A stretch of DNA of 63,452 nt, the filler included, from Sluysia triapertura (taxonomy: Eukaryota), in the NCBI GenBank assembly GCA_046118255.1. It is 5 parts of 5 records of this genome, joined end to end, with 100 filler letters (N's around TTAATTAATTAA, not from the genome) between each part and the next. Parts side by side here need not be neighbours in the genome. Positions count along the whole stretch, not along the records: positions 1 to 11,285 come from JBJNIA010186369.1; positions 11,386 to 24,642 come from JBJNIA010049450.1; positions 24,743 to 36,623 come from JBJNIA010161263.1; positions 36,724 to 51,009 come from JBJNIA010000345.1; 1 more part is not named here. One strand, 5' to 3'. This document shows positions 8,802 to 45,680 of this stretch, in pieces. The stretch's first letter is position 1, and each line of letters begins with the position of its first letter. Both the position numbers and the translations under genes were made by a program. The notes beneath the pieces were generated by a model, which was not told the DNA's origin, made no database searches, and saw nothing but the letters and a program-made list of their open reading frames with translations.

Positions 8802-8955
8802 TGTTGGGATATAGTCATAAGGTGCCATTTGGTATAATTGAATATAATAATCTAAATTGTTAGACGGGGCTGATAGCACAGTGCTAGAGCATCGAATTGC
8901 GCCGCTAGAAGTCCCGGGTTTGATCACCGGTCAATCTATTTTACGAAGTCTAACA
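8802..8955 (+). mobile_element. Short TGTT...AACA (solo-LTR-like) element carrying a tRNA-like sequence, copy 1
   Basis: Starts TGTTGGG, ends GTCTAACA, flanked on both sides by ATAT. tRNA-like unit at 8867-8938 followed by TTTT. Homologous to 11434-11578 and 45526-45680. Confidence 0.8.
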
Positions 8956-9059
8956 ATATCATATGAAACAAATTATTAAAACTAGGCAACGTTGTAGCTT
9001 TGTAGATTTGTCATAACAATATTATTAATTTAATAAATATTTTACAATCATAATTATAA

Positions 9060-9365
9060 TCATAATAACTGTAATAACAAACTATCTGTAATTGGATCCA
9101 TAAGTGGTTCATGTAATTCTGAAATATTTGCATCAGTAACATCAAGTCGTCTATGAGTTGGAGATGGATGCAAAGGACCTATAGAATGAGGCCAAAATGG
9201 ACCATGTTTATCTCGAATAATACCATATTTATCACGATACTGTCCTCCAGCCAATAGTTCTAGCTTACTTCCATCAGGTAATCGTCCTAAACGAATTGCC
9301 TCTTTGAAACCATCTTTAGTAAAACAACTAAACAGTACTTCTTTTTCACGAGCAGTCAGTGACCC
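9060..9365 (-). CDS. Probable internal exon of a conserved protein (possibly the N-terminal extension of a cytosolic carboxypeptidase 2/3-like protein; tentative)
   Basis: Open frame with higher GC and a protein-like composition: LELLAGGQYRDKYGIIRDKHGPFWPHSIGPLHPSP. A tag acceptor lies near 9366. The family guess is from memory only. Confidence 0.45.
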   Translation of the reverse strand, partial: GSLTAREKEVLFSCFTKDGFKEAIRLGRLPDGSKLELLAGGQYRDKYGIIRDKHGPFWPHSIGPLHPSPTHRRLDVTDANISELHEPLMDPITDSLLLQLL

Positions 9366-9479
9366 TATGTGTAACAAGGATTTTAAGTTTCATTGCTATA
9401 GTTTAATTTATCATTATTTTGCATTTATACGTAATAATCTACAAATGTATCAACAAAACAAAATAAAAATAATTAAAAC

Positions 9480-10130
9480 ATAAAAAGTAACTATTTTTTG
9501 TTATTATTCGACTTAGGACTGACGGTGTTAAAGTTTTGCAATCAATATACAAATTTACAACAAATACAACACAAATTTTGGAGTCATGCATTTACTAATA
9601 GATGGACATTATCAGCAGTTATTTCAAAATTAAAAATCCAAAAACCGTTTTACAACGAATCCAATATTTTAGAAGTTTTAAATGAATTGAAATTTATGAA
9701 AAATATTAGAAAAATAGCTATGCAATCTGAAGTAAATTTATCAAAACTCCGTAAGAATCTATAATCAACAGAAATCATATTAAAATATTATGAACAGATG
9801 ATACCAAAGGCGTGGGGATTTGGTATTAGTTAAAAAATAACTTTATAAAATAAATCTTATATTAGAATAAATTATGTCTTAATAAATAGTGACTTGACAC
9901 TTGAATGACATCATTTTTCATGTATTGTTTGTATTATTATAAAATGAATTTGATTTTTATTTATTCGACTACAAAATATCCAACATTTATTTGTTTTCTA
10001 GGAGTTGATTTGCAAAATGAAAAATGATGTATTGATGTATATCTATTTCAACATTTGCAACATAGTAAATGTGTGAAAATACGAAGGAAGCATGCGGTAA
10101 GTACTTGCCTTAAGGATATTAATTGTATTT
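9480..10130 (+). mobile_element. Heavily deleted piggyBac-like transposase remnant
   Basis: YEQMIPKAWGF at ~9788-9822 (cf. IDEQMIP...KWGFK) and a Cys-rich tail CENTKEACGKYL at ~10070-10110. Confidence 0.35.
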
Positions 10131-11285
10131 GCGATTTTATTGTTTCGATGCATCTCAACGACTGCATATCGCTTATCTTCTAAAGTAGGGCGTAATGATT
10201 TTTTCTAATTATTGTTTACTTTGTATGGTGAATGTATCTTTGATTAATCTAAGTTAGTAGATAAAGTTTTTTAGCTAACACATGGTTTCGTCCATGTTTT
10301 GATAAGGAAAATGGAAATTGACTTTATTTTTACGATTGGTTTATTTTAGTACTTATGTTTACATGTTAGGTTTATATATATATATAACAGGTAAAGATAA
10401 TATTTTTAAATTTAAACTAATTAGGCGAATACAAACACTAAGAGGAGAATAAATTATTAATAATATGCAGCAATTGCAACCACAAGATAAATAAATAAAA
10501 TATAATAATTTATTAATTCGTTTTCGTATTCAGAACCGTCGTATAAATACCAAATTGAAGTAAATATATCTTCTTTGCCCTTCTTAACACAAAGTAATGC
10601 TACATACATTTTAAACATTCTATAAACAATTGTAAATTTATTTTGTTTATATCAAGTAGATTAATTTCATTGTTTATTTGTACAAATGATGTTTTTGAGA
10701 TGACTAAATTTATTTCACTGAATTTATTTCAATGCTTGTTGAGTAAATAGTTCTATATTTTCTAGATATTACCAAATTTGGTTTTGAAAATATAATAGAT
10801 TTACAAAAAATATTTTATTTTATTTACGATAAATATTCATTTTGCCAATTTCTCTGTCAAATATGGATGATGCCGATTTTTTTACACCAGTCAAATTTGC
10901 GCTTCAGTCATTATATAGAAGAAATAATTTAACAGAAAAAGTAACTCATATTTACACTGAAAATTTTTTTACGTAAGAAAAAATTAAAATAATTTCATAT
11001 CTCATTTCTAATTGGATAATTTCAAGCTAAGAATTAGTGTAATTAAAAATTCATTTTATCACTTTTGGCAACTCATACAAATCAAGTTTTACAAGTACAT
11101 CCTCTACAACGCTCCCGAACACATAAAGTATACATAAATATGTAGGTTTTGTGATTTTATATTATTATTTAGTAATATTTAATAATGGATAATTTAATAT
11201 CATTAAAAATTAGGTTAGTATCAATCAGAGATGAATATTTGAATGATCAATGTATATGTTGTTAGATAATGGTATCCAAATTGTG

Positions 11286-11385
11286 NNNNNNNNNNNNNNN
11301 NNNNNNNNNNNNNNNNNNNNNNNNNNNNNTTAATTAATTAANNNNNNNNNNNNNNNNNNNNNNNNNNNNNNNNNNNNNNNNNNNN
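11286..11385. other. Artificial contig spacer (N44-TTAATTAATTAA-N44)
   Basis: The same 100-bp six-frame-stop linker occurs four times in the window. Confidence 0.97.
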
Positions 11386-11433
11386 TTTATTAATTTTATA
11401 TCAAAATTAAATGAATACGAATCTCAATATATT

Positions 11434-11578
11434 TGTTAGACTTCATAAAATGGACTGACAGGGAATAGAACCCGGGACCTCTCGCTGCACAGTTCGATGC
11501 CCATCTAAGAATTTTATTTTATTATAGTCAATATTACTATCGTAATTCTACATAGCACTTTAGGCCTTTACCCCAACA
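11434..11578 (-). mobile_element. tRNA-carrying TGTT...AACA element, copy 2 (5' part of the tRNA-like unit deleted)
   Basis: tgttagacttcataaaatggactga...ccccaaca, flanked on both sides by TATT. Confidence 0.75.
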
Positions 11579-12680
11579 TATTTATCACAAATAAATACAT
11601 AGTACTCATTTATGAAATAAACTATTAAGATACATTAAATTAAATAATCATTCTGGTTATAAAAAATATTAAAATATAAAAATTATTGAAATATAGAGAT
11701 ATAAAACTAAAGTACCCAATAGTCAAATTATAATCAGAAAAAAAATAAACTGCCGTATCAGCCGGCCTTTGTTTTAGTCACAGTTTAACAATATATCTTG
11801 TATAAAAATGTATCTTACTCAATTACTAAAGAAAGCTTTTAGCATAATATTATTCAAAAAAGTATCGCAAACGTTGTCTTACATCAAAAAGCTTATGTGG
11901 ATTGTAAAATTTAACTATATGCTAATGACATTAGTTAAAATTAATTATATTTCGCTATATGAATAAACGTATTTTGTATTATTTCTTTTTTTAAAACAGG
12001 AATATGTTTCATTTTACCTTATTAATCATGCTGATTTCTCAAATACAAATATTGGACACAAAGTTATTCCGTTAAAAAAATAATAATTTACTTTCATGAC
12101 TTAAAATGATTTACTTGAGGTTTTCTGGTTGATTTAAACATCTTATTTAACTACCGTATAAACGAATGGAATTAGACAGTAGATTTTTGTATACACCAGT
12201 TTAATTTTTTACTTATTATTTTGTTATCACTTTTCATTTAGTAAATACATTCTAGCTTATAATATTTTAAAGCAAACTTAGCAGATGGTTTAAATAAATT
12301 CAGAAATATGTAATTCACATAACTCAAAATTGTACCATTTAATAAGATCATAACTAAACTCATTCATTTTAATGCATTTTTGATACTTAATACAATTGTA
12401 GAATATATATTGGAAAATGTTGAAAAGGTTTGTTCTTAAAACTCTGGCTGACTTGAAAAAAGATGAATGTTTTCTGTATTTTATAATTAGCCTAATGGGT
12501 TGATTAATGTTTCTTGATGCTGTAATTTTTTAAAGGTTTTATGGTGGGTCATTACAAATAAAAATTGATATTAATTATAATGAAATTCGCATAAAATAAG
12601 GATGTATTTAAGGTTTTAGGGAAGTTTAGAAATTGGTTTGTGGTCATTACAATTAAGTTAAGATTTTGAATGAATTAATG

Positions 12681-12890
12681 TGTTAGGTTGTCATAACGAC
12701 CTTCTAAAATCATTCAAAATGCATTAAAATTATTTATAAATGTCTAAAAACACTTTAAAAATGTTTATTTTCTAAAAAAGAAAGTTTGCTTCTATAAATA
12801 GAAAAGAAGCCTCTAGTATGTTCTAGACAGTTTTAGAATATTCCATCGATTTTCATTGGCTTTTGACTAATATATAAACTAGGATCAGTT
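12681..12890 (+). repeat. LTR-like dispersed repeat starting TGTTAGGTTGTCA (inverted copy at ~55450-55634)
   Basis: gcttctataaatagaaaagaagcctct...ttttagaatattccatcgattttcattggctt matches the reverse complement of ~55480-55545. Confidence 0.7.
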
Positions 12891-13149
12891 GAAAATCGAC
12901 ATTTTACAATTGTCAGACATTTTACAATTTTGGGTCATTTTACAATATTCAGCTATTTTAATTAGTCAGCGCCATTTTATAGTTTTAAATTTACTATTCA
13001 ATCTACTCAGTACACCAGCAATTCAATTTCAAGCCGGATCGGCATTTTTTAATTTCCATACAAGGGTAAATAAATTTATTTTAAGAAGATTTTGACTTTT
13101 ATATAAGCCAAAATCATAAAATCCAGGTAAAATTAAAATTAAGTATTAT

Positions 13150-14287: not shown

Positions 14288-14458
14288 CATCATCGGCAGT
14301 GACATTTTCATTTGCATCTATAATTCCATGTCAGTGTAGATGATGATTGGCATCTCAATGTATTTATCTCATCAATTATAATTTTTATTCATTTATTGGC
14401 TACCCAACCAGAACGCATTTTTACATTGCTTTTATATGTTTCTGGTTGAATAGCCGAT
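14288..14458 (+). promoter_or_regulatory. Twin inverted repeats upstream of family locus A
   Basis: IR1 14288-14304/14329-14345 (14/17 paired). IR2 14395-14413/14440-14458 (16/19, contains ATTGG). The regulatory role is inferred. Confidence 0.7.
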
Positions 14459-14615: not shown

Positions 14616-15265
14616 ATGCTTCATGATGAAAACATTTATGTAATATTCAGTTACGAAACTAAAACTAATGTGTTCGATTACAATAAAGATTATAAAGATT
14701 ATGGCCATAAATTTAAAGATTATAAAGATGATGAAAATGATTTAAAGACTATAAAAATGATTATAAAATTAAAGATCATCATGATGATAACAATGAGTTT
14801 AAAGATTATAAACATGATGATTATCGATTTAACTATTTTAAAGATTATATAGATGATAACAACGAGGTCAAAGAGTAAAATCGGGACTATGAAGTTAAAG
14901 TTAACAATATTGATTATCATGAAATTAACGATAGTAAATATGGCCCTTATAAAACTAACATGGTTGCCATCTGTCCATTTGCGACTGATGTCTATGACAT
15001 ATTTATAAAGAAAGGAAGTTCTTGGTGCTACTCCCATATAGTTTGCGAATTACAGTGGATCAAGGAAAACAATTCGTATTCCTTCAGAATTACCGAATTA
15101 GTCAAGAGCCTTAGTTTGTGGACAACGATACCTGTTGACAATAAATCTATTACGAAATATCATGATGTAATTAATTCACTTGCTCATTGTAATAATATTA
15201 TAAATAATGTTTTTTCTTCAGATAGTGAAACAGAGACACATACAAAGATGGTGTTTAACATTTAA
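14616..15265 (+). pseudogene. CCCH-family locus A: acidic KDYKD-type repeats plus a degenerate CCCH finger
   Basis: YKTNMVAICPFATDVYDIFIKKGSSWCYSHIVCEL aligns to the family finger with two Cys lost. Frameshifted. Confidence 0.6.
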
Positions 15266-15886: not shown

Positions 15887-15939
<53 letters not shown>

Positions 15940-21829: not shown

Positions 21830-22390
21830 ATTTTTCATCATAATATTTCTGAAACAGAAAGAACTTTGCCTTTTTCTTTGAACTTGTGAACATTTAGATC
21901 ATTTAAGACCTTAGTAACATTTAAGTATTCTTGGAACATCGATAAGCATTTGAGATCATTTAGTAATTTTATAAAGTATTTAAAATCGTTGTTATTGGTA
22001 TTAAGAATAAGTAGAAAAATGAATCAGAGAGGTGAAGGTGAAAAAATCTAGAGCCTCCTGAATGCCTTATAAATTACTAAATAGTTTTAGAATATCAATA
22101 AAATCTTTAAACATAGAATAAGATTCAGTCTAAAAAACAGATTAAAATTAATTAAAATCTTAATTAACTTAATTAAGAAAAAGTACGTTTTTATGAATAA
22201 CTTTTGAATGCGGAATGCAATGTTGAATTTGAAACTGTGTATGTATTTGTTTTTGGAAAGACCTTTCGATGAAAGTATGGTTTGACCGAGTTCAGGCAAG
22301 GAAAGCCTTAATATTGAGCAAAGTCAAGTTTTAATTAATTCTTATTATGCAATGTTGAATTTTTTATATTTAGAGTGATGCAAAAATAAT
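21830..22390. repeat. Dispersed ~0.6-0.8 kb repeat family, copy 1
   Basis: The core agaggtgaaggtgaaaa..tctagagcctcctgaatgccttataaattac...ttaattaagaaaaagtacgttttt is shared with ~33 kb, ~38 kb and ~45 kb. Confidence 0.85.
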
Positions 22391-22589: not shown

Positions 22590-24182
22590 TATAGATGTAA
22601 TCCTGTGTATGCCGTTGATTGATTTCCACATTTCACTATCTGAATAAAAATAAAAGGTTATGGTAACATCAATGAAATGATAGAAATTATTTACTTTTTT
22701 GTTTGTCTATGATTAACGTGTTATTTGACGTATCTCGAACTGGTGATCCGAAACTTATGAGAATTCTTTCGATTCTGGAAAGATGGTCATCATAGTATAT
22801 GCTTCCTGCCTTGGTAGATACTAATTGGTTGACTGTGTGGGCATATTGGCATTCAACTGGCATTCAATCACTGTTGAATGGGCAGAATACTTTTTTGATA
22901 AGTTGACTCGAATTTGGTACGATTAAAGCGTTTATACATTTTTCCGACTGTAAGCTGTAAGATGTAAACTGCTAGCATGATTCTTGATAGTTTCTTTACT
23001 TTCTAATGTATCATAATTCCGTGAAATCGTTTGACAATCATTTGCATAGCTTCGTGTTGCATATTCTACAGTATAATCGTGCATATCCATCATAATATTA
23101 ACTAGAACTGGGAATTGCATTCATGTTTTGAGAAAATGTCATCATCATCATTAATTATAATAGATTCCATATTCACTGATTCATCATCAATATTAAGATC
23201 CTTGGACGAATCATTAGAGATATTGTTCCAAACCAAGTCAGTTAATTTTAACGCATCCATTAGGACATTCACTTGTGCTTTACCAAAACATCGATCATCA
23301 TTAAAAACCAAATGTGACTCCTCTAAAATCTCATATCCATATTTGCAAGAGAATAATGACTTATCGTAAAATGTGCCGTTCGTACCACCGGGATGATAAT
23401 TGTCAGTTTCAACCACAAATCTGAAAGATTTATCTTCATCAAATCCCATCCACTTTATTTCACCATAAAAACTTAATCTATGTTCGTTTTTACATAAGAC
23501 TGCATAACCAATTCCAAAATTGTTTTCTATTCTCTATTCATCTGGTTTCAATACTGTTTTGAAACCGTTGATTGGTTCTTCAATTTTACATTTAACTTCA
23601 TCGATTCCGTAAGTTTCGATCGCATTGTTCTGTGTCTCAACAACACATCTGAAATCTTCATTTTCGAACTGGCACCTTATTATTTTACATTCTGTTTCAT
23701 TTTTAGCAATTACATTAGTTTGTCGTTTAATGTAAGTAAAAATATTGTTATGTTCAGGAATGATACAATGATCATCTTTTTTAATTTCTTTCAAAGAAAT
23801 ATATACTTCAAACTCTTTTTTTCAACAGGTTCTTTCTTAGGAATAGGTTGATCTGTTTTTACTAAAGAACTATTAATTTCTTTAATTTAACCAATTTTCA
23901 ATACTTTTTCACAAAACTGACCATGAATCGTATTCAGATATTGAATTTAAATGTTTTACTTCAATTATATTTGTCTCATAATAATCACAAAATTCATTAG
24001 ATAAATCTAATTTTAAAGACGCTTTGATTTTATTTTCTTCATAACTACTTGTTTACCTTCAGATTCTACAATGATTTTATCACGCTCATTAACGCAATCT
24101 AATACTCTTCCTACAACTTCTTCATGATCATAAAAAATATTATATTTTCATTAATAAGTTCGCATTCAAATTTTTCGCTCAT
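22590..24182 (-). pseudogene. Family locus C: CYLD-type CAP-Gly domain plus C-terminal CCCH finger, with a 3' intron
   Basis: FGIGYAVLCKNEHRLSFYGEIKWMGFDEDKSFRFVVETDNYHPGGTNGTFYDKSLFSC (~23330-23520) resembles CYLD CAP-Gly3 FYGVIRWIG...[22 protein letters not shown]. FCPF...ECQYAHTVNQL at ~22820-22890. GT-AG intron ~22642-22694. Several stops and frameshifts. Confidence 0.7.
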
Positions 24183-24744: not shown

Positions 24745-25070
24745 AACTATTGAGTATTGATTGGAGTATAACCAAAAAACTATTATTAATAAAATATTAC
24801 GCACTTCTATCCTAAACAGCGAGGACGAGTATACTGACTCATAAGTTTGTAAATAAGTTTAATATAAAGTGATAGTATTAATTGAGAAGTTCAGAATAAC
24901 TATAAATTTTCTAAAGAGATTTGAATCAATAATATAGAGCAAGAATTTTGAGTATAAAATAGTATCCAGACATATTTAAATTTGATATAGATTTAAACAA
25001 AGAGATAACGCTTAAAATGTTAAAGATTTAGAAGAAGCAAAGACAAATTTTACACTAACATATACTTACA
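24745..25070 (+). repeat. Dispersed repeat, copy 2 of 7715-8040
   Basis: Direct alignment with 7715-8040. Confidence 0.8.
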
Positions 25071-25265
25071 TTTATATAAACTAACTTTAAAAAATTTATT
25101 ACATTACTATTATTATTATTCTTGTTCATTTTTATTATCATTATTATTATTATTATTAAATTAATCGTTAATAATTATTAGTACTAGTAATTATTTATCT
25201 CAGTATTCATTATCATTATCCATTATTCGTATCACATTATTTTTTTTGTTACTAATAGCATTTGT

Positions 25266-25617: not shown

Positions 25618-26290
25618 ATGTACCATAACAATATATTTTCAACATCTACAACATCGTTGATCACTTCGACCGATACTATATCTACTTCAAATCAGAGTAG
25701 TCACATGAAAGAATATTTACAAATATGAGATTACAGAGACGTGGAAAGAAGCACAGTATTCAAAGTGTATTGAATGATAATTCTATCAATGTTATACATA
25801 AATCTTATTCAACAGATGATAACCTTATCAAGCAAAGTAGCAATGATAGAAATGATAATTTTATTATGAGTTCTTTACTAAATAATCGAGTTCATTTTAA
25901 TATCCAAACGACGATCAATTCTTTTACATCCCGTCCAATCGATATGGAAAACAGCTACAAAAGTCAATTTAAAGATAAATTTAAACTTCCAAAATGCACA
26001 TTCTGTCCATTTCTAGTTACATCATCAGGACAATGTATGAAATATGGCAACGTATGTTCGTATGCCCATAGTTTCAATGAATTAGTTTCAATTCCTGATA
26101 ATACAAACCAGTCATCACGCTCCAGTATTAAAAATTTTAATAAAGTAATTTTTTATTTTGTCAAACATTACATTATTTTTGATTCTTATGTATGCAATTA
26201 CAATTCATTAACATTATTTTTAGGACCTGATATAATGTCTTATAGCATCCTCGAGAAATAAAGAAAATAATGTCTATATAGCTTTTTGTG
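25618..26290 (+). CDS. Family locus D: Ser/Asn-rich protein with an intact C-x9-C-x6-C-x3-H finger (may be frameshifted at the 5' end)
   Basis: ORF 25725-26261 contains FCPFLVTSSGQCMKYGNVCSYAHSFNEL. A GT-AG intron at ~26145-26223 follows the finger. Confidence 0.6.
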
Positions 26291-26869
26291 GTATTATTAA
26301 TAAATATTTCGTAAATTAAATTTGTTTTTTTTATTAATTTTATAAAGTTCTAATATGATCTAATGAATTTTTCTTTATTAACAAAAATTTAATTCATAAT
26401 AAACAGCTTAAAACTACAACCACACCAAAATGAATATTGATCTTATAAAGAAATGGAATTAAAGTTTGAAAGTCAAAACTCGCATCATGTATAACTATCT
26501 CAGGTGAATAAGCAACTTTAATCAATGAAATTTTTTTATGAATATTTGTGGAATTTCCAATTTTCTGAAACCTATTTTAATAACTACAATCTACATACAC
26601 CAAACAGATTTGAAATTATTGATTGATGAATTTCAACAAAAGAGAAACAATTAAGAGATATAAATACTGGAAATCAAAACACCTTAAAAGAAAATATGAA
26701 CAATGTACAATAAAACTAAAAAAACCTCTTCGGAGCTAAAAATGTACTCGAATAAACAAACAAAAATATAAACGAACAACTTCAAAAAAATAAGTTAATC
26801 AAAATTGAAAGTACAATAAAACCACTAAAATGAAATAAGTCGAATTAGTTAATAAATCAAATGTTAAGT

Positions 26870-27850
26870 CATGAGTTACATGATGAACCAAGTATAAAGT
26901 GTCACGAGTCAATCGTCAATCTAAACATGAAGTGTAATGAGTTGAATGCTACATCAAGCACAAAATATGATGAGTTAAACGATAAATTAGACGAAGTGTG
27001 ATCAGCTAAATGTTAAATTAAAAAGGTAAGTGTTAGATCACTCTTAACGAATAATGAAGTTAACACTGAACCAAATGTAAAATACGATGAGTTAACTCAT
27101 GAAATAGATATGAAGTACCACGAGTCAGAAGCTACCTTAAATCGAGATGAACCTAATGACAAAGCATGCGGAGATTCAGAACTTTCCAGATGCATGCTCA
27201 ACGACAATTTAAGTGTGGCTAAACAATATCAACATAGAAGAGCCCAGCGATCAAAGACAGCTGACTATTGTGATTTTTTTATTGTATGCAGATTTATATT
27301 CAATTGTTATCAAGGTGACTTGAAAGAATTACGTCATTAATTAATATCATCAAAACTGTTTGTATATATAACCATAATAGTGTTACTATGTATAAAAATA
27401 AAGGTCTTTACTTCTTCAATTTCTCAAAGTCAGTGAGTTAAAATTTATACAAATGAAAAATAGCATATCCAAGAGGAAATATAAGTTCTTAATAAATCAT
27501 AAAGTTAGTGGAATCGATATTTGTGCTGAAACACAAGCCGTTAATATTCTTTAATAATAAAAATATCAAAAGCAATAAGTTATGTCCAAAACTAAATAAT
27601 GAAATCAAAATCATATTATCTATTTATCGTATTTACCGCGTAAAAAGTTGTACCCAGAAAACAAGGAATTATTTCAGATTAAAAACTGAAACAAGCATAT
27701 GTTTAAATTCTCGAATCAAACATTCACAGCTCATTTCTATTACATTAATAATATTCTTTACTATTATATTAAACTGTAGGGTTCGTTGTTCTATGATCAT
27801 CAATGTAAATATTGAGTTCTTCCTTTCCTGTAGACAACCATCAATGCACG
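26870..27850 (+). pseudogene. Decayed family-related locus with 33-bp (11-aa) repeats
   Basis: 33-bp units such as gatgagttaaacgataaattag are shared with 62070-62225. DYCDFFIVC resembles DFCDIYFTC at 49349. Confidence 0.45.
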
Positions 27851-31894: not shown

Positions 31895-32949
31895 TCTACT
31901 TTTAGAAGTGTAGTAAAAATTAAATTTTAAATACTAATATACGTAACATGAATTTTATGCACTTTTTTCCTACATTCAAATAATATTATTTTTTCGTTAC
32001 ATTCATAAACCTGTAAAATATTTATGACAACATAGTTAAAAAAATTAATTTTAATCATTTCTAAATTTCGGCTAATTCAAACAAATAAGAAATTCAATAA
32101 TTTTCCTTAGTTACATTTATTTAAAATTAATTTTTAAACACAACAGAGTTGTCATGTATCAATAATTTATTTTACAGCTTAACATTAATTTAACATTGCA
32201 TCTGGGTGAATACAATGTCTACTGCATTTATATTTAATACTCTTTAGAATCTCATAGAATGTCATTACGTATAGAAGAATTTAGAGACTGCATGTCTCAA
32301 GTAATGGCACTTCCAAAATTAAGAAAATGTTTTAGTTGAAAAATTTAAAATTTGATTATATCCAGAGTTAAGAACTTTATGCATTACCTTTTAAGGATAT
32401 TGCTAAGAACTTTAGAGTGTTAAAGAAATCTCGAGCCGAATAACGTGATAAAATAAGTTGATTAAGATAGTTTAGAATAGAAATTTTCTTAAGAAAATTG
32501 ACTCACCATCCTTAGAATAAATAAAGCAAAAATAATAAAGGTACTTGACTGTAATCAACAACAAATAAGAAGAAACTTTTCAATATTAGATAATGAAGAC
32601 AATTCCGAGTCAAAACTTAATGTGCATGTTGGAGTTAATTCGAGCACGCTAAACAAGCCAAATTGGTCATATTCTAGATAATTAGAGTTGGTCGTTTTAT
32701 TGATATTTATCATTTTTTAAAATAAATACTATTGTTATTATTATATCTGCTGAAAAAGTATAAATGAATATTTTTACTGATATTTGAAATGAAAGATAAT
32801 TAAAGTCGATGAACGGTGTTGAGATTGCCAAATTTTGGAACGGAAGATAGATGGGAAACACATGAAATTACAATTGCATGATGAATGAATGTAAACGATG
32901 AATAGAAACAGTAAAGTATTGTTGGAGTAAGAATGATGAAGATTGAAAT

Positions 32950-33480
32950 GATTATTGTTGCGTTGAGAGCTTAAGAATCCCTTTGAATTCCAAAGACCTA
33001 AATGAGGTGTTGAGACCTTTTGGAAGCTTGAGAAGCTTTAAAGGTATTGGGATATCTTTGAATTTGTGAACTCTGATATCATCTGAGACTTTATGAAACT
33101 TTTTGAAACCTTGACAAGCATCTAAGATCTTCAAGTAACTTTACAAAGTATACAAAATCTTTGAAATTTTTCAGAAATAAAATCATTGTTATTTGTATTA
33201 GGAATAAATATAGTATAGTAATAATTAACGTAAAGATGTAGAAAATGAATCAGGGTAGTGACGGTAAAATGTGTAGAACCTCATGAATGCCATAAAAACT
33301 ACTAAATAACTTTAGAACTTTGAAAACACCTTTAAACATAAAATAAGACTAAGTCTAAAATAGATTAATTAATTAAAATCATAATTAACTTAATTAAGAA
33401 AAGTACGTTTTTGTGAATAACTTTTGAATGTGGAATGCTATGTTAAATTTGAAGATATATATGTATTTGTTTTAAAAATG
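32950..33480. repeat. Dispersed repeat family, copy 2
   Basis: Aligns with 21830-22390 and 44700-45460. The minus-strand peptide KLPKGLNTSFRS matches KLPQGLNTFYRS in copy 4. Confidence 0.8.
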
Positions 33481-35429
33481 TTGGGATTGCCCAGTTAGTG
33501 TATAGAAAATAAGGAAAAGATAATAGAATTTAAAATATATAAGAAAAAGTAATATAAAATATCTGAAATATGATAAAATAAATATAATCAAATATTTCTA
33601 GAGCAAGATTAATTAAAAATAAAATGTCTATAATCATTTTGAAACCGAAGAATATGTTGAGATTGCCCATGTGTAGATCAGAAGATGAGTGATAAACAAT
33701 GTAGAACTATTAAATGAAAAGAAAACTGATACAAAGTGATGGATTTGTTGTGTCTTTTATACTTTTTATTTTACAAATTATTAATTAAAACCCAATAATT
33801 AAACAACTTCAGAATCTCGATATATTCTTTGAATAATCAAAAATTACAATTTAAAAGATAACAATTTTTCTTTATGACAAAGACAATACAAAGTACTCTA
33901 TAACAAAATACAAATTATTCTTTATAACAAAATTGCAAATTATTCTCTATCACAACGTAAATTACTCTTTAAAAACAAATTAAAAAGCCAAGGGTGACAG
34001 AACTTAAATCCTCACACCCGAATTAATGCAAAATACACTCAATACAAAAAAGATCACTAACCCTAGGTCCTCTAACTCTAATTGTTTATAATGATCAGTT
34101 ACTAAAGCCCTGATATCACAGTTAACCACAGATGTATCAAGGCAGCGTCCTTCGGCTAAAAAGTTTTGATATTCCAATTTAATGCTTATCTCTGTCGATT
34201 TTTATTTCTAATTTTATGCAAATTTGTAACTGCTTATATAGAACTTTTATGATGCCGTAGGAAATTAAAATCAAATATTTATATAACATAATTACTATTA
34301 ATTTTCTAAATATTGATATTGTTAGTGTCTGTTGCGTCACTCGCGGTTGTTTTGTCTTAATTAGATTGTAATATCCTTGATTTTATTATTAAACGCTATT
34401 ATTATTAAACGTTATTTTAGTTGTTCTCAGTAGTTAGTAAAGATTCTTATTGATAATAAATTGTATTACGATTTTTTGGCTAATAGTACATTATTGTCTT
34501 ATTTTTTATGTGATTTTCAAGAACTTAAATTTGAAATAATAGTTATTACTATTATAATAGAAGATTACTACAAAATTATACTTAATATACTGACTATTTA
34601 AATTATTAAGGTTCCTTTAAGCTAATCAAGTTAATATTGAGTTGTAATAACTAAATAATTTTAGAGACGCAACATTATGACATAATTGATCTTTTCTCAT
34701 TATGCAACACTTTTATTTATTAAATAATTATTTCTAATTATTCCTTCATACAACATAAATTATGCATCGTTATACATTGTCTATTGAATAAGTTCATGTT
34801 TCTATTATAACTAACACATATTATAAGTAATTTTAACATAAAATTTCATCAACATGGTTAAAAGATTTCTTAGATATTAATTACAAGTTAAAAATAAGTT
34901 TCAAAAATGCGTAAGTTTTTTATTCAATACTTAAATTTTTGTTTTTTATAAAGTGCGTAATATTTATTTATTTTTATGATGAGCGGTTTTTATTATCTGT
35001 ATTTTTACATTAACTCATTACTGGCTGTTGACGTAGTAATACACGTCATTTTTTATTCGAAATCCAGAAGCCGCTGACGTAGTAGTACGTTTTTTGACAG
35101 AATAACTTTGTTCTTGTTGCCATCAAACAGTCGATTAAGAAGTTTTAACGGCTAGTTATGAGTTAAGAAATGTTTTGTCTTTATTTAAAAAGCATTCGAT
35201 TTTGTATTACTTTTTAAATATTCTAAATGTGGTGATTTATTATTTAATGTATTTATTAATAACATTAATTTTATTTCGTTAAGAATTGTTATCGAAAATG
35301 AAAATTCTTCTTAATTATATATTTCTTTAAAAACTTTATTACTAAAATTAGTTTGAATTTATTCAAATCAAATAACAATTGAAAGTAACAAAGGAAACTA
35401 TCTATTTTTATTAATTCTATACAAAAAAA

Positions 35430-36490
35430 TTTCTTAATACAACGTTTTACCATTTTTTGAACATGCCAAGACCTAATTTCATTTATTTCTCTAAAAAAAT
35501 ACAAATAGATAAATCGAGTTAAATTAAAATAATTCGAAACAGAATATATAATTACTTGTGTCACTGGGTCGAATGGTATGTTAATACAACTATGATTCTT
35601 AATGTCAACAGTACTAATAGATAAGCTTTGTATGTCGAGTATGATTCCTAAAGTTGATAAAATAGATTTGATTCTACGATAATGATCATTGAAATTTGCA
35701 GGATGACTAAGAACATCTTTGAATTCATAAATTCCGTGGTAATATCTACAGTGGTTCCCATTTCTAGAACATTCGCCAGTTTGAGTAGTTTTATACAAAC
35801 AAAGAGCGATCTTGCAGTGTTTGTTATCATTAACATAATTCAGTGGATTTATATGTTAAGGCTTTATATGTAAAACGGCCAGTTTTTGATCTTTCGTTCG
35901 ACAAGTCTGTCTTTAATGATACTACTTTATTTGTTATTACAAATGAATCAACATCTACTATATTTGTAAAAACTAATTCGTGAGCCGTTGGAAACATATT
36001 AATAGGTTTTTCTACAGCTTGACCGTCATCTTGCTTTATCATTTTATATTTCAAAGAATAGGCATGATTCTTTGACTTTTTTGTTACCTGAATAAATCAT
36101 AGTAATTTCTTTCGACTGAGATGGATAAAATCATGCAGTTAAACTTCTTGTACTAGTATTTTGTACTTGCACTAATCTAACATAAATTTCATTAATTTCA
36201 CAATTAATAACTTTCGGTTATATTCCGTGTAATCCATGAAACATACTAGTTAAAATTAATTATTTATACGTAGTTAATGTTGGCTTAACAAATTTTACAT
36301 TTACTGGATAATTATTCTCGTCTTTAAAATATTGCGATACATCACATCCATCTTCAAATCTACTATTTTTTATTTACTTAACGTTAACAGAGTAAAAAAT
36401 ATAACCAATTTTTAAATCATCTTTTTCACCAAAGTCATTTTCACCAATTTTAATCAACATATTTGAATGACATATACAATGGAAAACAAA
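35430..36490 (-). pseudogene. CCCH-family locus (close paralog of 57960-59100)
   Basis: KHCKIALCLYKTTQTGECSRNGNHCRYYHGIYEFK finger; IVDVDSFVITNK; FNDHYRRIKSIL; GT-AG intron ~35490-35554; frameshifts. Confidence 0.7.
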
Positions 36491-37399: not shown

Positions 37400-37680
37400 C
37401 AATTATAATTTTAAATAAATCGGTCCGTCTGTATATTGCGGTTTACGTCTGAACGAGGACGCAATTACAGATGCTAAAAGAAATTAAATCTTTCCTACAA
37501 AAATCGAAAGATCAACTTGAGGGTCACTAATTTTCTTTTTGATCAGTCCTTTAATGCAGTCTGCGTTTTACTGTTATACTTTTCTACAAACTCCTAAATT
37601 TAATTTACTTAAGCTATACAGATTTTTAGTTCAGAGTATTTACTGAACCGTGAGACCATTTGATACATCATCAATCTCTA
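37400..37680 (-). mobile_element. Degraded integrase core fragment
   Basis: DDVSNGL(TV) and VEKYNSKTQTAL (cf. SDNG...VERFNRTLKTAL). Confidence 0.4.
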
Positions 37681-38300
37681 AAAATCTTCGAAACTTTCAT
37701 AAACATTTGAGAACTTTGAGCAACCCGGTAAATATTTGAAGTATTTAAATATTTGTGAAATAAAAGCATTGATATTAATATTAAAGGTAAATATTATATA
37801 GTAATAATTAATATAGAGAAGTAGAAAAGGTACCAAAATTAAAGATGAAAGCATCTGGAACTCTCTGACTGCCTTATAAAGTTCCAAACAACTTTCAAAA
37901 CCTAATAAAACCTTTAAGCATAAATAAGATCAAGTATGAAAATAGATTAATTTATTAAAACATATAATTAACGTTTTATGAATGTTTGAAAGCAGAATGC
38001 TGTGTTAAAGTTATAACTGTGTGTGCTAGTTTTAATAATATCATTAGATGGAAATATGGTTTGACCGCGTTTATGCGATGAAAAATTTAAAATTGAGCGA
38101 AGTCAAATTTTTATTAACTTTCATTTATAAAATAGTAAATTTTTTATATTTAAAATAATAAAAATATAATGAATTGAATATGAGATGACTGCTATGAAAG
38201 AGAAGAATCCGGAAATAAATTTGAAATGTTAATACAAAGGGCTGTTTGAGAATAATAACCTTAAACATTTGCTATTAGAAAGGTAATTGAATTCCAAAAC
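37680..38300. repeat. Dispersed repeat family, copy 3 (more diverged)
   Basis: tgccttataaa...tatggtttgaccg...aagtcaaattttt...tgctatgaaagag aligns with copies 1 and 4. Confidence 0.75.
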
Positions 38301-39099: not shown

Positions 39100-42000
39100 A
39101 ACTAAATGCAATACTAAGTTTGCCTAGAGCCTTAAATCTTTATCAATGTCAAACAATTGCCTTAAATCTGAAGTTTATTATTGTCAAACTAATTTAGAGT
39201 AACAATGATTTTGCGTATATCCTATTATATAGGATCGATCTAAGAAATATTGTTTGCTATAATTAAAATCTAGCGTGTAAAACAAAATTTTTGTTATCTA
39301 AATGATTTTATTATAAGAAATAATTTAATTACTCAATGATTTATTAATTAAAGAAATACACAAAAAGAAAATATAGTACGGATTTTACTTTAACTAGGTA
39401 GAACTAGTTACACAAAACTCAATATTTTATAAAATTGATTTTACCTTGGACCCTTATATGGTCCAGTTATATGTTAAGAAATTTAACGTGAAGTTTACTT
39501 ATGATATTAAATATCAGCTCTTAATATTAATTAAACTAACGCGAATTTACTAAGTTAATAAAACTTCTTTCTTCAAATTGATATCGTAATTAAAAAATTT
39601 TTCCGAAAATGTCACCGTAACTTTAAATAAAATTGTGTTTAAAAATCTTTTATAAAATTATTATAAAATTATTGAGATTATGTTAAAAATGTCTTTGCTT
39701 ATATAGTGTTTTAACCTGACCTTGAAAGGTCAGATTAAAACAAACTAAAATAATTTTTTATATAGTCGCGTTATTTAATAAAAATTTTAAAAAAATATTT
39801 AACATAATTTAATATTAAAAATAAAATAACATACTTATTTTAATAATAACAATCCAAATAACAATCCAAATAACAATCCAAAAAATTTTTTCAAAAATAA
39901 CAAATATAATAAATTCAATAAATATGTTTAAATTCAATAAATATGTTTATCAAAATCAATATTATGTCTCTAAATTATTAATGTTCGAATTGCGTTATAA
40001 TTTATCAATGTCCAATGTCCAATATTTCAACACAACAATATAAAAGTCATTCGCTAATACTCTTTAACTTATATCACACAAATTACAGGACCAAAAATAA
40101 ATAAATAATTAATAAAAATAAAAATCTTCAACATAAACTATTATAATAAACTATTATTATAAATTGTTACGTTTGGTTCAGCTGATATCGCTTTTCTAAT
40201 TTGTCTCAACATCACCTCCGAAACATAATTACTCTCACTCTTCGTCCTATTACTATTAGTCTGGAAGACAAAGTTAAATTAGTCTGTAGTTAGTCTTTCA
40301 ATAAAAGATTACTTAAACTTGAATAATGTAGGCATTTTGAGGAAAAGGGAAAGAGAATTATAGAGATTTTAAGAAAAAAGAAAATTATAAAATTGTTAAA
40401 AAGAAAAAGAAAGTTTTAAAGATTTTACAGAAAAGAGAAAGAAAATTATAAAAATTTTTTTAAGATAAGAAAAAGAAAATCATAAAAGTTTTAAAGAAAA
40501 AGAAAAGAAAAAGAAAGTTTTAAAGATTTTAAAGAATAGTAATAATAGTAATTACGAAGAAAGTTATATTATGCATTTTTTAATTACTAATTAGAAAGAA
40601 ATTCAAAAATTTAGAAATTGCATTTTAAAAATTAATTACAAAGTGTCAGAAAGTTATATTTTGCACTTTTAGAAGACGTGCAAGATATAAGTCCACGTAT
40701 AATCTCCAAATACCAGAAAGTTATATTTTGCATTTTTAGAAGACGTGAAAGATATAAGTCCACGTCTTATCTCTAAAAACTATTTGAAAAATGACAGATT
40801 TGATAAAGATATTTCTCAGAACAAAAATAGTTTTAAATGGATTCGGATCAGATTTTTATGGTGGTTTTTTGAAAATAATTCTCGAAGTGAATCCATCCAA
40901 GATCAATGTAAGTGGTGGCCTTTATTTCACGTACTGCAGTGGAATGATTAGCATGAGAATACATATGAATGATTTTTGAAGCAACTCAATGGATGATTCA
41001 GCTCCTGTCTCAATGTTTTTGGCTTAGATTTAAATTTTTATGGCTTTAGACCTTTTATGTTCCTGATTTGTTACCATAACTTTGACAAAACCCATAACTT
41101 TTATAAAAAGAAATGTATCAGTCACAATTTTTATGCTACTAAAGACGATTATTACGTATATCTTTGCTACCATGTAAGTTATTTGTGTGCTTGACGTTTC
41201 GACGCACGGCTGAATTCAATTTGTGTAGCTATTATATTTTTCTGTGTTAAAGCAAGAACATTTAATTTATGGTAATGTAAAGTCGTTAATTATTTCATCT
41301 ATTTGTAAGGATCTTAAGTCCGTATTGCTTTTAAATAATTTAAATGCAAATTACTAGCACAAATAAATGCATATCGGACATTACAGAACATGTTTCGTTT
41401 ACTCACTCTTGTATAATGTCCATACTTACCACAATTATCACAGTTTATTTCCCCATCTATGTTAGTTTGTGTCTTGTTATTATTTCCATATTTCATTGGG
41501 CTCTTACTTCTATTTCTATAACTGTTAATATTAGAATTAGGTGGATATCTTGGTCTTTGTTCATAGTTAGATGCACCATATTTGCTTATTTTGGAACCCT
41601 TTACTTCTATTATTATTACCCCTATAATTATTTGTATTACTTCCATAATTATTAGTATTATTTCTATTATTTGAATTACCTCTACATGGGCTACTGTAAT
41701 TACTATCTCGATCATTATATCTATTGTAATTTAAGGAATTATATTTATTATTATTCTAATCATAATTATTTCTATTTCTTTTTAGTTTAGGACTTTTATC
41801 TCTTTTATTTTAATCTTTGTTATTACTTACTTAGTTAATATTATCCTTATCATAAATATAAGATTGTTCTTAATTTCTTAATTATTTCTTTTAAAGATTT
41901 TCCTTCTATTAAGGTAGCATATGTCCTTAATTCTGGTCGTAAGCCAGTTTTTAATTTGTCTATTATGTCGATTTTTTTATCTTCAGAGATTTTTGCCTGG

Positions 42001-42507
42001 TACAAGGCTTTTAAGAGCACAAGCGAATTCAAATACAGATTCGTTTGGCTTTTGTATTCTTGAGTTTAACATTTTAGTGTAATATTTTCCTATGTCATCA
42101 AGTGCTATCTCTTCAGTATAGGCGTTAACAAATGCATTCCAAGACTGTTTATCAGTACTGATTATTTCCTCATATGTCTGGATCACGCCCCATTTAAATA
42201 ATTTTAAATTCTTCTTATATTTTTGGCTTCGGCGATGTTTTCATATTCAAATAAGAAATCGCAGAGATCTTCTTCTGCTCCGTAAAATTTTTTCATTTCA
42301 GGTAATGCAATTATAGGGAGCATATCTCTGGCTAAATGAACCATGCATTCCTTAAAATCATCGTCGTACAGTACAATTTGTTTATCTATTTTTTGCATAA
42401 GTCTTACTATAATTAGTTTAGAGTATAGCAATTTAACAACTAACACTTGCGAAATCTATATTTATTTTATATATCCTTCTGAATACTGTGCCTCACTCTG
42501 GGTACCA
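39100..42507 (-). mobile_element. Decayed Ty3/gypsy LTR retrotransposon: PBS, gag, zinc knuckle, protease, weak integrase traces
   Basis: PBS-like TGGTACCCAGAGTGAGG (42507-42491). gag: KKFYGAEEDLCDFLFEYENIAEA, RIQKPNESVFEFA, KLKTGLRPELR. Knuckle CDNCGKYGH. Protease IETGAESS (~41014-40990) and a frameshifted ILGMD-like motif (~40900). The left boundary rests on weak GPY/F traces and is uncertain. Confidence 0.8.
40647..40780. repeat. 67-bp tandem duplication
   Basis: cagaaagttatattttgca...agatataagtccacgt..atctc occurs at 40647 and again at 40714. Confidence 0.9.
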
Positions 42508-44699
42508 GTTTATTATGCAGAAAAATTTTGTGTTAATTTGTGATTTATGTTTATGTATGATGGGTCCCTTACAATCTTAGTTTTACTCACTTAAGGGCTA
42601 AGTTGTATACAGCAATCAAAAGAAGTAATAATTGGAGGTAAGTAAGATTTTTAAACGTTAATTATTTTATGTAAAATAAAGTCGATTCTTTCCTTAAATA
42701 ATAATTCACGTAAAAGGTTGTAATCATACAGAAAAAACGGTGTCTTAAATTCTTTCTTTTTAATAAGTGGTATCAGATGATGCATTTCTGAACAACTAAA
42801 ACCTCCTTTGACAATTACAAAAAAAAACAAATGATAATTTACATGTGTAAGAGAAGGAATATAAATATAAGTATAAAGAACTGAAATAAACTCATAGAGA
42901 ACAAATAGTTGGATTTTGATAATTGAAAGAAAGTGAATTTAATTTAACTTAAATTAAAATAGAGCTAATGGTTAAAGTCTTGTTAAAATTGAAAAATAAT
43001 TCACTAAAAGTAAATAACATTGTATTTACTATTCTATAAAAAGATTATAAACCAAAGATCATAAGGAGTAAAGTTTAGATAATCATAAAGTCAAATTAGA
43101 ATTGAGATAATCAATGATTTTAATAGAAAAAGAATCGAGTAAAATTTTAGACCTTCACTTAGGTTAAAACCAAAACAGTTAATTATTATAAAATCAAGAC
43201 TTCTTAAGTAGTTAGACCCTCCATTAAAAATCCTACGGGAAATTCGCGTAAAGCATAAAACATTAATCGTAGGTGAACCTAGTAGTTAGTTAAGTTAGTA
43301 GTTAAGTTAAGAAAACACTAACAGCTTTAACTCTCAGCCGTGTGCATTATCAAATTGATTTTTAACACTGCAAAATTATTTTATATGAGGATGAAGCCGA
43401 ATTAGATTTCTTCAGAAAAGACGGGTTTATAGGATTTTATCAATTAATCTACGTTGAAATGTAAAATGCCTTAATCTTTTTACTATTATAAAACAGTTTC
43501 GTTTGAATTGTAAATTCTAATTATTAGTTTATGAACGCATTAAAATTTTCTTCCACTAACTTTGTCGATTAAATAATGAAATTAACATTGAATATAAGAC
43601 AATTTAAAAGGAAAGAACTTTAAACAAGATACCACAACAAAATACAAGATGATAATAATAATAAATAATATGAAACTTTACAAAAATTAAGATTTCTTTT
43701 AATATTGATTTTAAATATTTTAATTTGATTTTCAAGAAACCACTAAAATCGCTCAAAAGGTAAATGATTTTAAGTCTTACATTAACCTAACAAAACAGAT
43801 TTACGCATTACATGGAAAACTTGTAAAAATCAGAATAATAATTAATGCTCCATAATTCCAGGTTAAACAATTATCATTGCTAATGGTTATGAATTTGTCT
43901 TCACTTTGTCAATTGTTGTTTTGCGTTGGAATTTCACTGTCGTAAATAACCACAATACAGCAAAATATTATAATAAATTTTTTGCTATGCACTTGAGCCA
44001 AAATTTGCCTCTAAGAAACTATTTATCTTTTCACTCATGAGCCAAAAATTATTATTTTTGTTAAGCTTTCAATTCCTTTTTTACCATTCAAAAGTTATTA
44101 TAAGCAATTAAAAACAATTGTATTATTTTCAGTGAAATTAATTAAACTAAGAGTTCGTCCGTAGGATCTTGGAATATAAATTATTAAAGTGAGGTTAAAT
44201 GCTTAAAAGCAAAATTCATATGACTTTCAAATGATCGTGTTAAGTAAGACAGTATGCACTAAATGGAATAGACTTTATAATTGTTATGTGGTTACAATAT
44301 GGATTTTGTTGGGGTTCTACCTAGTTTAAATTAGATGATATATTTGAGTATCTTTTTGTACTAAGACTAAAACTAAGATTATCGTCGTGAAAAACTTTAC
44401 AAAAAAGACTTATTTTATGAAGTCGAGACTATATAATTTAATCCTTTGTGATTTTGAATCCTATTTAAAATGATTTGTAAAAATTGTGCGCGTAGATTTA
44501 GTTTTTGGGGATTGACTAAAAATAAATTTATAAAATTTAACGCATCTATTATCATGTTTGAATTGTCCAACTGTGGTTTAGGAGATGAGTAGGAGACATA
44601 TAGAATCATAAAATAAAGGAAGTGATAGATTGAAATTATAAACATTGTTGGAAATAGAATCATGAAAATAAAAACATTTATAATAAGGTTAGCAGCTAA

Positions 44700-45460
44700 A
44701 GAATACTTTAGAGTTTCATAGACCTATAGAAGGTGTTGAGACCTTGTGGAAGCTTGAAATTGACTTGAAAAACCTTTGAAGTTATTGGAGTAACTTCGAG
44801 CTTGTGAACATTGAGATAATCAGAGACATTATTAACCTTTAGGTATTCTTGAAACCTTGATAAGCATCTGGGTTCTTCGAGTAACTTTATAGAGTATTTA
44901 AAATCTTTAAAATATTTGAGAAATAAAATTGTTGTAATTGGTATTAAGAATAAGTTTAGTATAGTAATAATTAACATGAAGAAGTAGAAAAATGAATTAG
45001 AGAGGTGAAGGTGAAAACATCTAGAGCCTCCTGAATGCCTTATAAATTACGTAATAGCTTTAGAACCTCAATAAAACCTTTAAATATAGAATAAGCTTTA
45101 GTTTGAAAATAGATTTATTAATTAAAATCTTAATTAAATTAATTAAGAAAAAGTACGTTTTTGTTAATAACTTTTGATTGCGGAATGCTATGTATTTATT
45201 TTGAAAAAACCTTTCGATGAAGATATGGTTTGACAGAGTTCATGAAAGGAAAGCCTTAATGTTGAACAAAGTCAAATTTTAATTAATTTTTAATTAATTT
45301 TTAATTATGTAATGTTGAATTTTTTATACTTAGAATGATGCAAATGTAATGAATGGAATATGGGATGATTGCTATGAAAGAGGAGAATCTATAAGTGAGT
45401 TCAAAATGTTTGTGGAATTGTTTGTTTGAGAATAAGAACCTTAAAATATTTTTCATTAGA
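44700..45460. repeat. Dispersed repeat family, copy 4 (longest)
   Basis: Aligns with copies 1-3. Confidence 0.85.
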
Positions 45461-45525
45461 CAATTTGGCGTGAAAAATCGAAAATCAATTAAATACTATA
45501 AAGTGAATTGAATTCATTATTTTTA

Positions 45526-45680
45526 TGTTAGACTTCGTAAAATGGACTGACCGGGGATCGAACCCGGACTTCTCGCTGCGCAGTTCGATGCTCGACCACT
45601 GAGCTATCAGCCCCGTCTAACAATTTTATTTTATTATAGTCAATTTTACCAAATGGCACTTTAGGCCTTTTACCCCAACA
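45526..45680 (-). mobile_element. tRNA-carrying TGTT...AACA element, copy 3 (best preserved, no TSD)
   Basis: Reverse complement reads TGTTGGGGTAAAAGGCCTAAAGTGCCATTTGG...TGTTAGAC-G-[tRNA-like]-TTTTACGAAGTCTAACA. Confidence 0.8.
45543..45613 (-). ncRNA. tRNA-like Pol III unit (pseudo-tRNA, Ala-like body)
   Basis: GGGCTGA/TCAGTCC acceptor stem, GCTC/GAGC D stem, CCGGG/CCCGG T stem, A box TAGCTCAGTGG, B box GGTTCGATCCC, followed by TTTT. The anticodon stem does not pair properly. Confidence 0.75.

Follow-up and report, generated by a model that had tools for sequence, protein, structure and literature searches.

Copies and ends of the repeat

The window analysed here, i.e. the whole stretch of 63,452 nucleotides from Sluysia triapertura (GCA_046118255.1), consists of five segments separated by N-linkers. 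Three of the five segments carry one copy each of a short repeat, which in all three cases starts with TGTTGG and ends with CTAACA. Copy 1 is 154 bp long (8802..8955, plus strand), copy 2 is 145 bp (11434..11578, minus strand) and copy 3, the best preserved of the three, is 155 bp (45526..45680, minus strand). A preliminary description had proposed three copies with these ends, and their coordinates and strands were reproduced exactly. A profile built from the three copies finds only these in the window, with E-values from 7.8e-53 to 6.2e-39 that hold by construction, and the next match has an E-value of 10. Neither a fourth copy nor a paired copy, i.e. two LTRs around an interior, was found by this search in the window.

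Copies 1 and 3 are 85.9% identical according to blastn (E 1e-45), and the homology among the copies ends exactly at TG and CA. The alignment shows that copy 2 has lost its A box and D arm through a 21-bp deletion and has an 11-bp insertion in its 5' part. The first 58 bp of copy 3 (45623..45680, minus strand), a putative U3, consist of the TG end followed by an AT-rich spacer that differs among the copies; loose ends of contigs occur within it, at 45632. The observed/expected ratio of CpG is 0.98, which does not indicate methylation decay.

Copy 1 is flanked by ATAT on both sides (8798..8801 and 8956..8959, plus strand) and copy 2 by TATT, as read on the plus strand (11579..11582 on the element's 5' side and 11430..11433 on its 3' side), in agreement with the duplications proposed earlier. 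The flanks of copy 3 show no duplication of 2-6 bp, and a 5-bp duplication is found in none of the three copies. A 4-bp match at such spacing occurs by chance with a probability of 0.0106 in the window, giving 3e-4 for at least two out of three copies, a small sample. Both duplications are AT-only, and if AT-only flanks are assumed the chance rises to 0.066 for each and 0.004 for two. The rebuilt target sites are GATATC and AAATAT.

The tRNA-like unit and the inner inverted repeat

A tRNA-like unit begins at base 66 of copy 1 and base 68 of copy 3. The earlier claim of an internal unit about 65 bp from the 5' end holds for these two copies, where the unit is whole; in copy 2 the A box and D arm are deleted. 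In copy 3 (45543..45613, minus strand) the acceptor (7/7 pairs), D (4/4) and T (5/5) arms are kept, while the anticodon arm is broken (1/5) and no anticodon can be assigned. Only copy 3 is called as a tRNA, both by Rfam (46.7 bits, E 7.8e-7, cut-off 29 bits) and by ARAGORN (type undetermined). The unit of copy 1 (8867..8938, plus strand) is more decayed (acceptor 6/7, D 3/4, anticodon 2/5, T 4/5) and falls under both thresholds. The minimum-energy folds of the unit contain no cloverleaf (z -1.4 for copy 3, -2.5 for copy 1).

In copy 3 we find an A box, TAGCTCAGTGG (45596..45606, minus strand), that follows the motif given in section 3.5 of PMC10886601, and a B box, GGTTCGATCC (45555..45564, minus strand). 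A run of four T follows the unit in all three copies (8939-8942 in copy 1; 45539..45542, minus strand, in copy 3) and is a possible weak Pol III terminator. The tRNA-like part, a broken tRNA copy, probably serves as a promoter; the Pol III gene of the preliminary description is putative.

Just ahead of the unit lies an inner arm, TGTTAGAC (8858..8865, plus strand, in copy 1; 45615..45622, minus strand, in copy 3). In copy 1 it is the complement of the last eight bases, 8948-8955, and in copy 3 the corresponding terminal arm is GTCTAACA (45526..45533, minus strand), the putative U5 and integrase end. The preliminary description had called this repeat perfect, which is correct for two copies; in copy 2 the arm matches at 6/8 bases. 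The perfect repeat encloses the inner 97 bp, and the target duplications flank the 155-bp unit. We considered whether the 58-bp 5' part arose by duplication of the inner unit and then decayed, and rejected this, as 1514 of 2000 shuffles align equally well.

Abundance and flanks in public contigs

We compared the element with contigs from four of the five public runs listed (X1-X4; X5 was left out). None of the listed runs is an RNA run, which has no bearing on expression. In X1 the summed contig depth reaches 0.8-1.3 million across the element, compared with 23-72 in the unique flank at 45714-46019; such depth is not equivalent to copy number. In the same run 255 records stop at 45526 with flanks unlike each other (agreement 0.44). 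Three contig records of the set stop at 45680. These contigs show a dispersed family of very high copy number whose 3' end is sharp. At position 45594, in the A-box region, 99% of the X1 depth restores the canonical TGGTAGAGC.

Loose ends at 45525 in X2 (three records), X3 (one) and X4 (four) have a common core, GTGAGCCCAC on the element strand, and diverge past it. In X2 and X3 the core starts with TGG two bases past the terminal CA, and in the X4 consensus one G of the TGG is missing (agreement 0.66). By eye, nine of the first ten bases from TGG agree with the tRNA-Trp primer site in Fig. S2 of Kojima. This PBS-like core thus comes from eight contig records of three runs, where the repeat is present at trace level and the unique flank is uncovered; X2-X4 therefore probably contain DNA of the same or a close organism and are not independent hosts. 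The core is absent from the six rows of X1, the run with most of the repeat, among the 24 of 1168 loose-end rows listed. In the window the motif has one match at two mismatches, equalled in 24 of 100 shuffles, i.e. at chance level, and no PBS or purine tract (PPT) adjoins the window's own copies. As a motif, a PBS-like sequence after the terminal CA would point to an LTR rather than to a DNA-transposon MITE or a SINE.

A repeat of about 800 bp adjoins copy 3. It was rejected as the interior of the element, as its three other copies in the window have no LTR; 4 of the 15 joints listed tie different points of it to the element end, weakly, with sides of 21-25 letters. The element motifs have no match in metagenome contigs or in prokaryote genomes. 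Viral contigs give 9 + 1 exact motif matches, which we rejected as chance, since the profile adds nothing beyond the motif in nine of the ten loci (E 0.11 or worse) and finds nothing in the tenth.

Nature of the element

With a probability of about three in four, we interpret the three copies as solo LTRs, of which two are clean and one is rearranged, and their source as a small non-autonomous LTR retrotransposon built like Helenus/TRIMp3. It is probably a new Helenus-type family, known here from LTR copies and contig ends, of a kind already described in 2024.

Alternatively, the solo LTRs could stem from a longer element (a LARD or an autonomous gypsy), transcribed by Pol II, whose LTR happens to hold a tRNA- or SINE-derived piece as passenger or helper. 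The interior of the element was never seen, the ends in X2, X3 and X4 share only the core, and copy 3 is followed downstream at about 3 kb, on its own strand, by a decayed gag-like stretch. Further, Kojima notes tRNA-like parts in other Repbase LTRs and retained only those below 1000 bp (PMC10886601). However, 155 bp fits the Helenus range, the boxes and three arms are preserved across a large family, and the gag-like stretch has just a sub-threshold zinc-knuckle match (E 0.4). Copy 3 has no PBS after it and its segment no second LTR. We consider a longer element unlikely.

The preliminary description also offered a Ginger-mobilised MITE with a Pol III promoter; in the version considered here, a Ginger2-type cut-and-paste transposase would move a MITE that carries a captured tRNA-like piece. 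According to the part of the Ginger paper available to us (PMC2836005), Ginger termini are TGTNR, and Ginger2 inserts at AT-rich RTATAY sites, duplicating 4 bp. Ginger1 and Ginger2 resemble our element in the TGT..ACA ends, the 4-bp duplication and, for Ginger2, the AT-rich target, and the AT-only duplications and the perfect inner repeat would suit such a MITE. However, the same part of the source gives Ginger elements long terminal inverted repeats of about 40-300 bp, against outer ends that pair here at only 5/8 bases, and specific targets, CCGG/CCGT for Ginger1 and RTATAY for Ginger2, which neither rebuilt site matches exactly, AT-rich as both are. Ginger elements as described there have neither PBS nor tRNA part. 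A PBS-like flank would have no role in a MITE, and the duplications bound the 155-bp unit instead of the inner 97 bp. A Ginger-mobilised MITE is thus disfavoured, and we hold it to be quite improbable.

A tRNA-derived SINE, inserted in a conserved flank or moving along with it, would account for the boxes, the T run and the very high abundance. The tRNA head of a SINE is expected first, but 65-67 conserved bases precede the unit, and contigs cover the 5' spacer as deeply as the tRNA part. The copies stop at an exact 3' end that lacks any A-rich or simple tail, and the duplications are 4 bp. The SINE reading is already largely refuted and has very little probability left. That genuine tRNA genes were dispersed by segmental duplication is hardly credible, even with copy 3 above the Rfam cut-off and called by ARAGORN, as the flanks are unrelated, the homology stops exactly at TG and CA, copy 2 has no D arm and the anticodon stems are broken.

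Proposed mechanism and significance

As a small Helenus-type retrotransposon, the complete element would consist of LTR, PBS, short interior, PPT and LTR. RNA polymerase III would initiate in the 5' LTR, at its tRNA-like unit, pass the weak T4 stop in some cases, and end at the T4 of the 3' LTR. With such a start and end, the R region, which is repeated, would be the tRNA-like unit. Reverse transcription would be primed at the PBS by a host tRNA, probably that for Trp, and a gypsy-type element would supply reverse transcriptase and integrase in trans, with 4-bp duplications of AT-rich targets as the outcome. If the two LTRs of one element recombined, a solo LTR that keeps the duplication would remain, as in copies 1 and 2; copy 3, with no duplication, may stem from recombination between LTRs at different sites or from a flank deletion.

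In a more far-reaching version, which we regard as unlikely, a Helenus-type family would have arisen independently in an animal phylum from which no Helenus is recorded, reached some ten thousand or more copies and come to use a built-in panhandle. In the transcript outlined above, the U5 arm GUCUAACA would be confined to the vicinity of the 5' end and the inner U3 arm UGUUAGAC to that of the 3' end. Their pairing would bring both tRNA-like R regions together for the first strand transfer, with a counterpart in the CYC5/CYC3 pairing of Ty1, as far as the available part of PMC3592414 goes. The inner arm may also mark where an older LTR of 97 bp once began before 58 bp were added to it, in which case this fossil end would record how such LTRs grow.

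The gain is modest: a Helenus-type family that is probably new and is very abundant, whose host may belong to an animal lineage not yet listed, with a PBS-like motif whose primer site lies outside the published Helenus set (PMC10886601). Copies that pass Rfam and ARAGORN, like copy 3, inflate annotated tRNA gene counts. An abundant family with subfamilies is also good material for a Pol III test of Helenus and for a covariation test of selection on the inner repeat.

Comparison with known systems

The literature searched (Helenus/TRIMp3 since 2024, tRNA-derived TRIMs, Myxozoa and planarian, with most subscription journals and Repbase outside its scope) contains no description of this family. 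The closest known system is Helenus (TRIMp3; Kojima 2024, Biology 13:119, PMC10886601). Complete Helenus elements measure about 0.3-1.3 kb in all, with two LTRs and a short non-coding interior. Animal Helenus make 4-bp target duplications (5-bp in fungi and plants), depend on gypsy, and are often left as solo LTRs, with listed LTRs of 104-323 bp. Like our element, they carry an A box TRGCY..YGG and a B box GGTTC in a tRNA-like unit inside a short TG..CA LTR, followed by a T run and a short tail. The LTR length is in range, the 4-bp duplication and the solo LTRs recur, and in both cases the tRNA part is unlikely to be functional. The Helenus PBS starts with TGG a few bases past the LTR, to which the PBS-like core of X2 and X3 may correspond. 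In the available portion of Data S1 parts 5 and 7, bivalve, brachiopod and nemertean LTRs show the same order of TG end, variable 5' part, tRNA-like unit, T run, short tail and ACA.

However, five LTR motifs and the primer-site motif of our element match no LTR of Data S1, so it is not a listed Helenus family. The host, an AT-rich eukaryote (24.8% GC) and probably an animal, has short introns and highly divergent proteins and, as far as we can judge, corresponds to no listed host. Protein searches to place it gave no hit, or none of use, apart from generic LRR proteins, one unnamed protein and CAP-Gly clusters below 0.9. The largest counted Helenus family has 5575 LTRs, and the abundance here seems to be above this, by contig depth and not by copy number. 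For Helenus, the part of the paper available to us says nothing of an inner 8-bp arm that is perfectly complementary to the end. Pol III transcription is expected for Helenus and validated for none (PMC10886601).

The preliminary description had proposed, as its first option, a tRNA analogue of the Cassandra TRIM, which we read as an LTR with a tRNA-type promoter moved by a gypsy-type integrase. The matching layout and the PBS-like flank in public contigs support this option; the class is known as Helenus/TRIMp3 (PMC10886601) and hence not novel. According to the available parts of PMC7215508 and PMC10886601, Cassandra likewise places a Pol III promoter and terminator from a small RNA inside the LTR of a non-coding retroelement. 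It differs in being a plant element with 5S rRNA (boxes A and C) instead of a tRNA, and its Pol III transcription, predicted here, is demonstrated in Cassandra (PMC7215508, same part).

Copies, ends and target duplications

The window has a GC content of 24.8% and consists of five segments with N-linkers between them. Three of the segments carry one LTR-like element each, copy 1 at 8802-8955 (+, 154 bp), copy 2 at 11434-11578 (-, 145 bp) and copy 3 at 45526-45680 (-, 155 bp), in agreement with the preliminary description. The start TGTTGG and the end CTAACA reported there are found in all three copies, and the similarity breaks off at those ends. Copy 1 aligns to copy 3 at 85.9% identity (E 1e-45). 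Copy 2 carries an 11-bp insertion and a 21-bp deletion spanning the A box and the D arm. No fourth copy was found when the window was searched with a profile built from these three.

The 4-bp duplications described for two copies were recovered, ATAT at copy 1 and TATT, on the plus strand, at copy 2. Copy 3 has no target duplication, and none of the three copies has a 5-bp one. The caveat that such duplications can arise by chance was quantified: a chance 4-bp match at the element spacing has a probability of 0.0106 in the window, giving P = 3e-4 that two or more of the three copies show one, or P = 0.004 for two duplications if AT-only flanks alone are counted. The perfect 8-bp inverted repeat stands for copies 1 and 3, where the inner arm, TGTTAGAC, and the final eight bases of the LTR are exactly complementary, but not for copy 2 (6/8). 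Exact complementarity of the two arms was reached in 0.3% of 100,000 shuffles. At the outer ends of the element 5 of 8 bases pair.

The tRNA-like unit

Only the unit of copy 3 (45543-45613) is called, both by Rfam (46.7 bits, E 7.8e-7) and by ARAGORN, which reports a tRNA of undetermined type. Pairing is complete in its acceptor, D and T stems (7/7, 4/4 and 5/5) and reaches 1/5 in its anticodon stem; the values for copy 1 are 6/7, 3/4, 4/5 and 2/5. Both the A and B boxes are present in copy 3, and TTTT follows the unit immediately in all copies. Judged by its sequence, the unit is a promoter-bearing tRNA mimic and no usable tRNA gene.

The family in public sequencing runs

Words of the window region 45000-46500 occur in five public runs, and the contigs of four (X1-X4) were aligned at 80% likeness. 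X1 is the main holder of the element and possibly the source of the window itself. Its summed contig depth, which by the tool's own warning is no copy number, is 0.8-1.3 million across the element versus 23-72 across the unique flank 45714-46019. Loosely read, this suggests about ten thousand copies as an order of magnitude, which agrees with three copies per 63 kb. At the 3' end of the element (45526), 255 X1 records run on into dissimilar sequence (agreement 0.44), the pattern expected of dispersed insertions with a fixed end, and the 5' end (45680) is the stop point of three records in three runs.

At 45594 the canonical TGGTAGAGC is restored in 99% of the depth. Further loose ends represent subfamilies set apart by their anticodon region and by their AT-rich spacer; those at 45567, 45573 and 45594 have either an anticodon region that is longer and in part palindromic, or another tail, ahead of an unchanged GTCTAACA end.

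In X2, X3 and X4 the repeat is present at less than 1% of the X1 depth and the unique flank 45714-46223 is uncovered. These runs therefore look like trace DNA in which solely the commonest sequences assembled, and they are not independent hosts. Loose ends at 45525 in X2 (3 records), X3 (1) and X4 (4) have a common core, which on the element strand reads GTGAGCCCAC. Its X2 and X3 versions start with TGG two bases past the terminal CA, the position of a primer-binding site (PBS); the X4 consensus misses one G of TGG. When the ten-base stretch opening with TGG was compared by eye with the tRNA-Trp site of PMC10886601 (Fig. S2), 9 of 10 positions agreed. Against a PBS and a complete element, the 24 of 1168 loose-end rows listed include six from X1, none of them with this core, and a purine tract is seen in none of their 5' flanks. 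No PBS or polypurine tract (PPT) was found adjoining the copies of the window, as expected of solo LTRs.

Other repeats and coding fragments

A dispersed repeat of ~800 bp has four copies on one strand, 70-83% identical (21876-22390, 32918-33473, 37644-38279, 44644-45460). Its depth in X1 equals that of the LTR family, its ends are undefined, and it has neither a tRNA part nor a coding match. Two ~230-bp repeats, 12681-12912 (+) and 55433-55634 (-), are 72% identical, start with TGTTAGG and seemingly end in ACA. They are possibly solo LTRs of another family; a check by eye found no clear duplication. Another dispersed repeat, of ~330 bp, occurs as a pair (7748-8069, 24778-25111; 81% identical), each copy adjoining (ATT)n runs. 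A gag-like stretch at 41300-42500 (-) is decayed: its frame is interrupted several times and its zinc knuckle is broken, the zf-CCHC hit in Pfam (E 0.4) staying below the cut-off. No LTR pair surrounds it.

CpG is not depleted in the window, and introns look very short. Gene fragments weakly match CAP-Gly, Kringle, LRR, Unkempt-like CCCH zinc fingers and Hsp70, all below Pfam cut-offs; we take the Kringle-plus-membrane, CAP-Gly and LRR fragments to resemble animal proteins, so the DNA may come from an animal whose genes evolve fast, which the 4-bp duplications would fit. The Unkempt-like fragments lie on different segments (25701-26261 (+), 35289-35855 (-), 58402-58806 (+), and near 14879-15265 and 22600), two with a Pfam E of about 1e-6, and are read as an expanded or mobile gene family. 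A CAP-Gly-like stretch at 23105-23820 (-) has one in-frame stop near 23534, due to a pseudogene, a tiny intron or a sequence error. Related degenerate 33/66-bp periodic coding-like repeats occur on two segments (26864-27110, 62041-62226). A 109-residue frame at 9063-9389 (-) ends about 100 bp from copy 1 and matches the 235-residue protein P0151, which has no Pfam family (53% identity over 70% of the query, E 2e-19). Copy 1 may lie inside or just behind the 3' end of this gene.

Proposed mechanism

From what is established on LTR elements, and from PMC10886601, the full-length form would be expected to read LTR-PBS-interior-PPT-LTR. Pol III would initiate at the tRNA-like unit, leak past the T4 of the 5' LTR and halt at that of the 3' LTR, which would make the unit the R region. 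Reverse transcription would be primed by a host tRNA, probably Trp, with reverse transcriptase and integrase supplied by a gypsy-type partner, and LTR-LTR recombination would leave the solo LTRs. Copy 3, which lacks a duplication, is bordered by repeat DNA at one end and by unique DNA at the other; its best reading is that two sites recombined or that a flank was deleted.

One possibility for the inner arm is that it was once the end of an older, 97-bp LTR and survives as a fossil; among the animal Helenus LTRs listed in PMC10886601 the shortest has 104 bp. Alternatively, it may form a U3-U5 panhandle that closes the transcript, much as CYC5 pairs with CYC3 in Ty1, where reverse transcription requires this pairing according to the part of PMC3592414 available.

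Comparison with known elements

The element is very likely an LTR of some kind. The proposal of a tRNA analogue of Cassandra is supported; Cassandra, in the accessible part of PMC7215508, is the 5S analogue of the element. The class itself is already described as Helenus (PMC10886601), which the element matches where tested. A MITE mobilised by Ginger fails on terminal-repeat length and target motif, as far as the available portion of PMC2836005 describes these transposons.

Helenus elements are small, non-autonomous and carry a tRNA-like part in the LTR. Their animal families generate 4-bp duplications and use the primer sites of gypsy elements as well, some fungal families persist solely as solo LTRs, and Pol III transcription is expected, not validated (PMC10886601). 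Known here from its LTRs and contig flanks, our element is alike in every respect tested, and probably belongs to Helenus. Motif searches of Data S1 of PMC10886601, which a distant relative in parts 2-4, 6, 8 and 9 could escape, gave no matching LTR or primer site, and the literature searched holds no description of the family; a 2026 meeting report, in its accessible part, mentions Helenus without new hosts (PMC12859917). We put the chance that the copies are solo LTRs of a Helenus-type family, probably a new one, at about three in four. The original observation is real; Helenus-type elements were already known, and what it adds to them is probably a new family.
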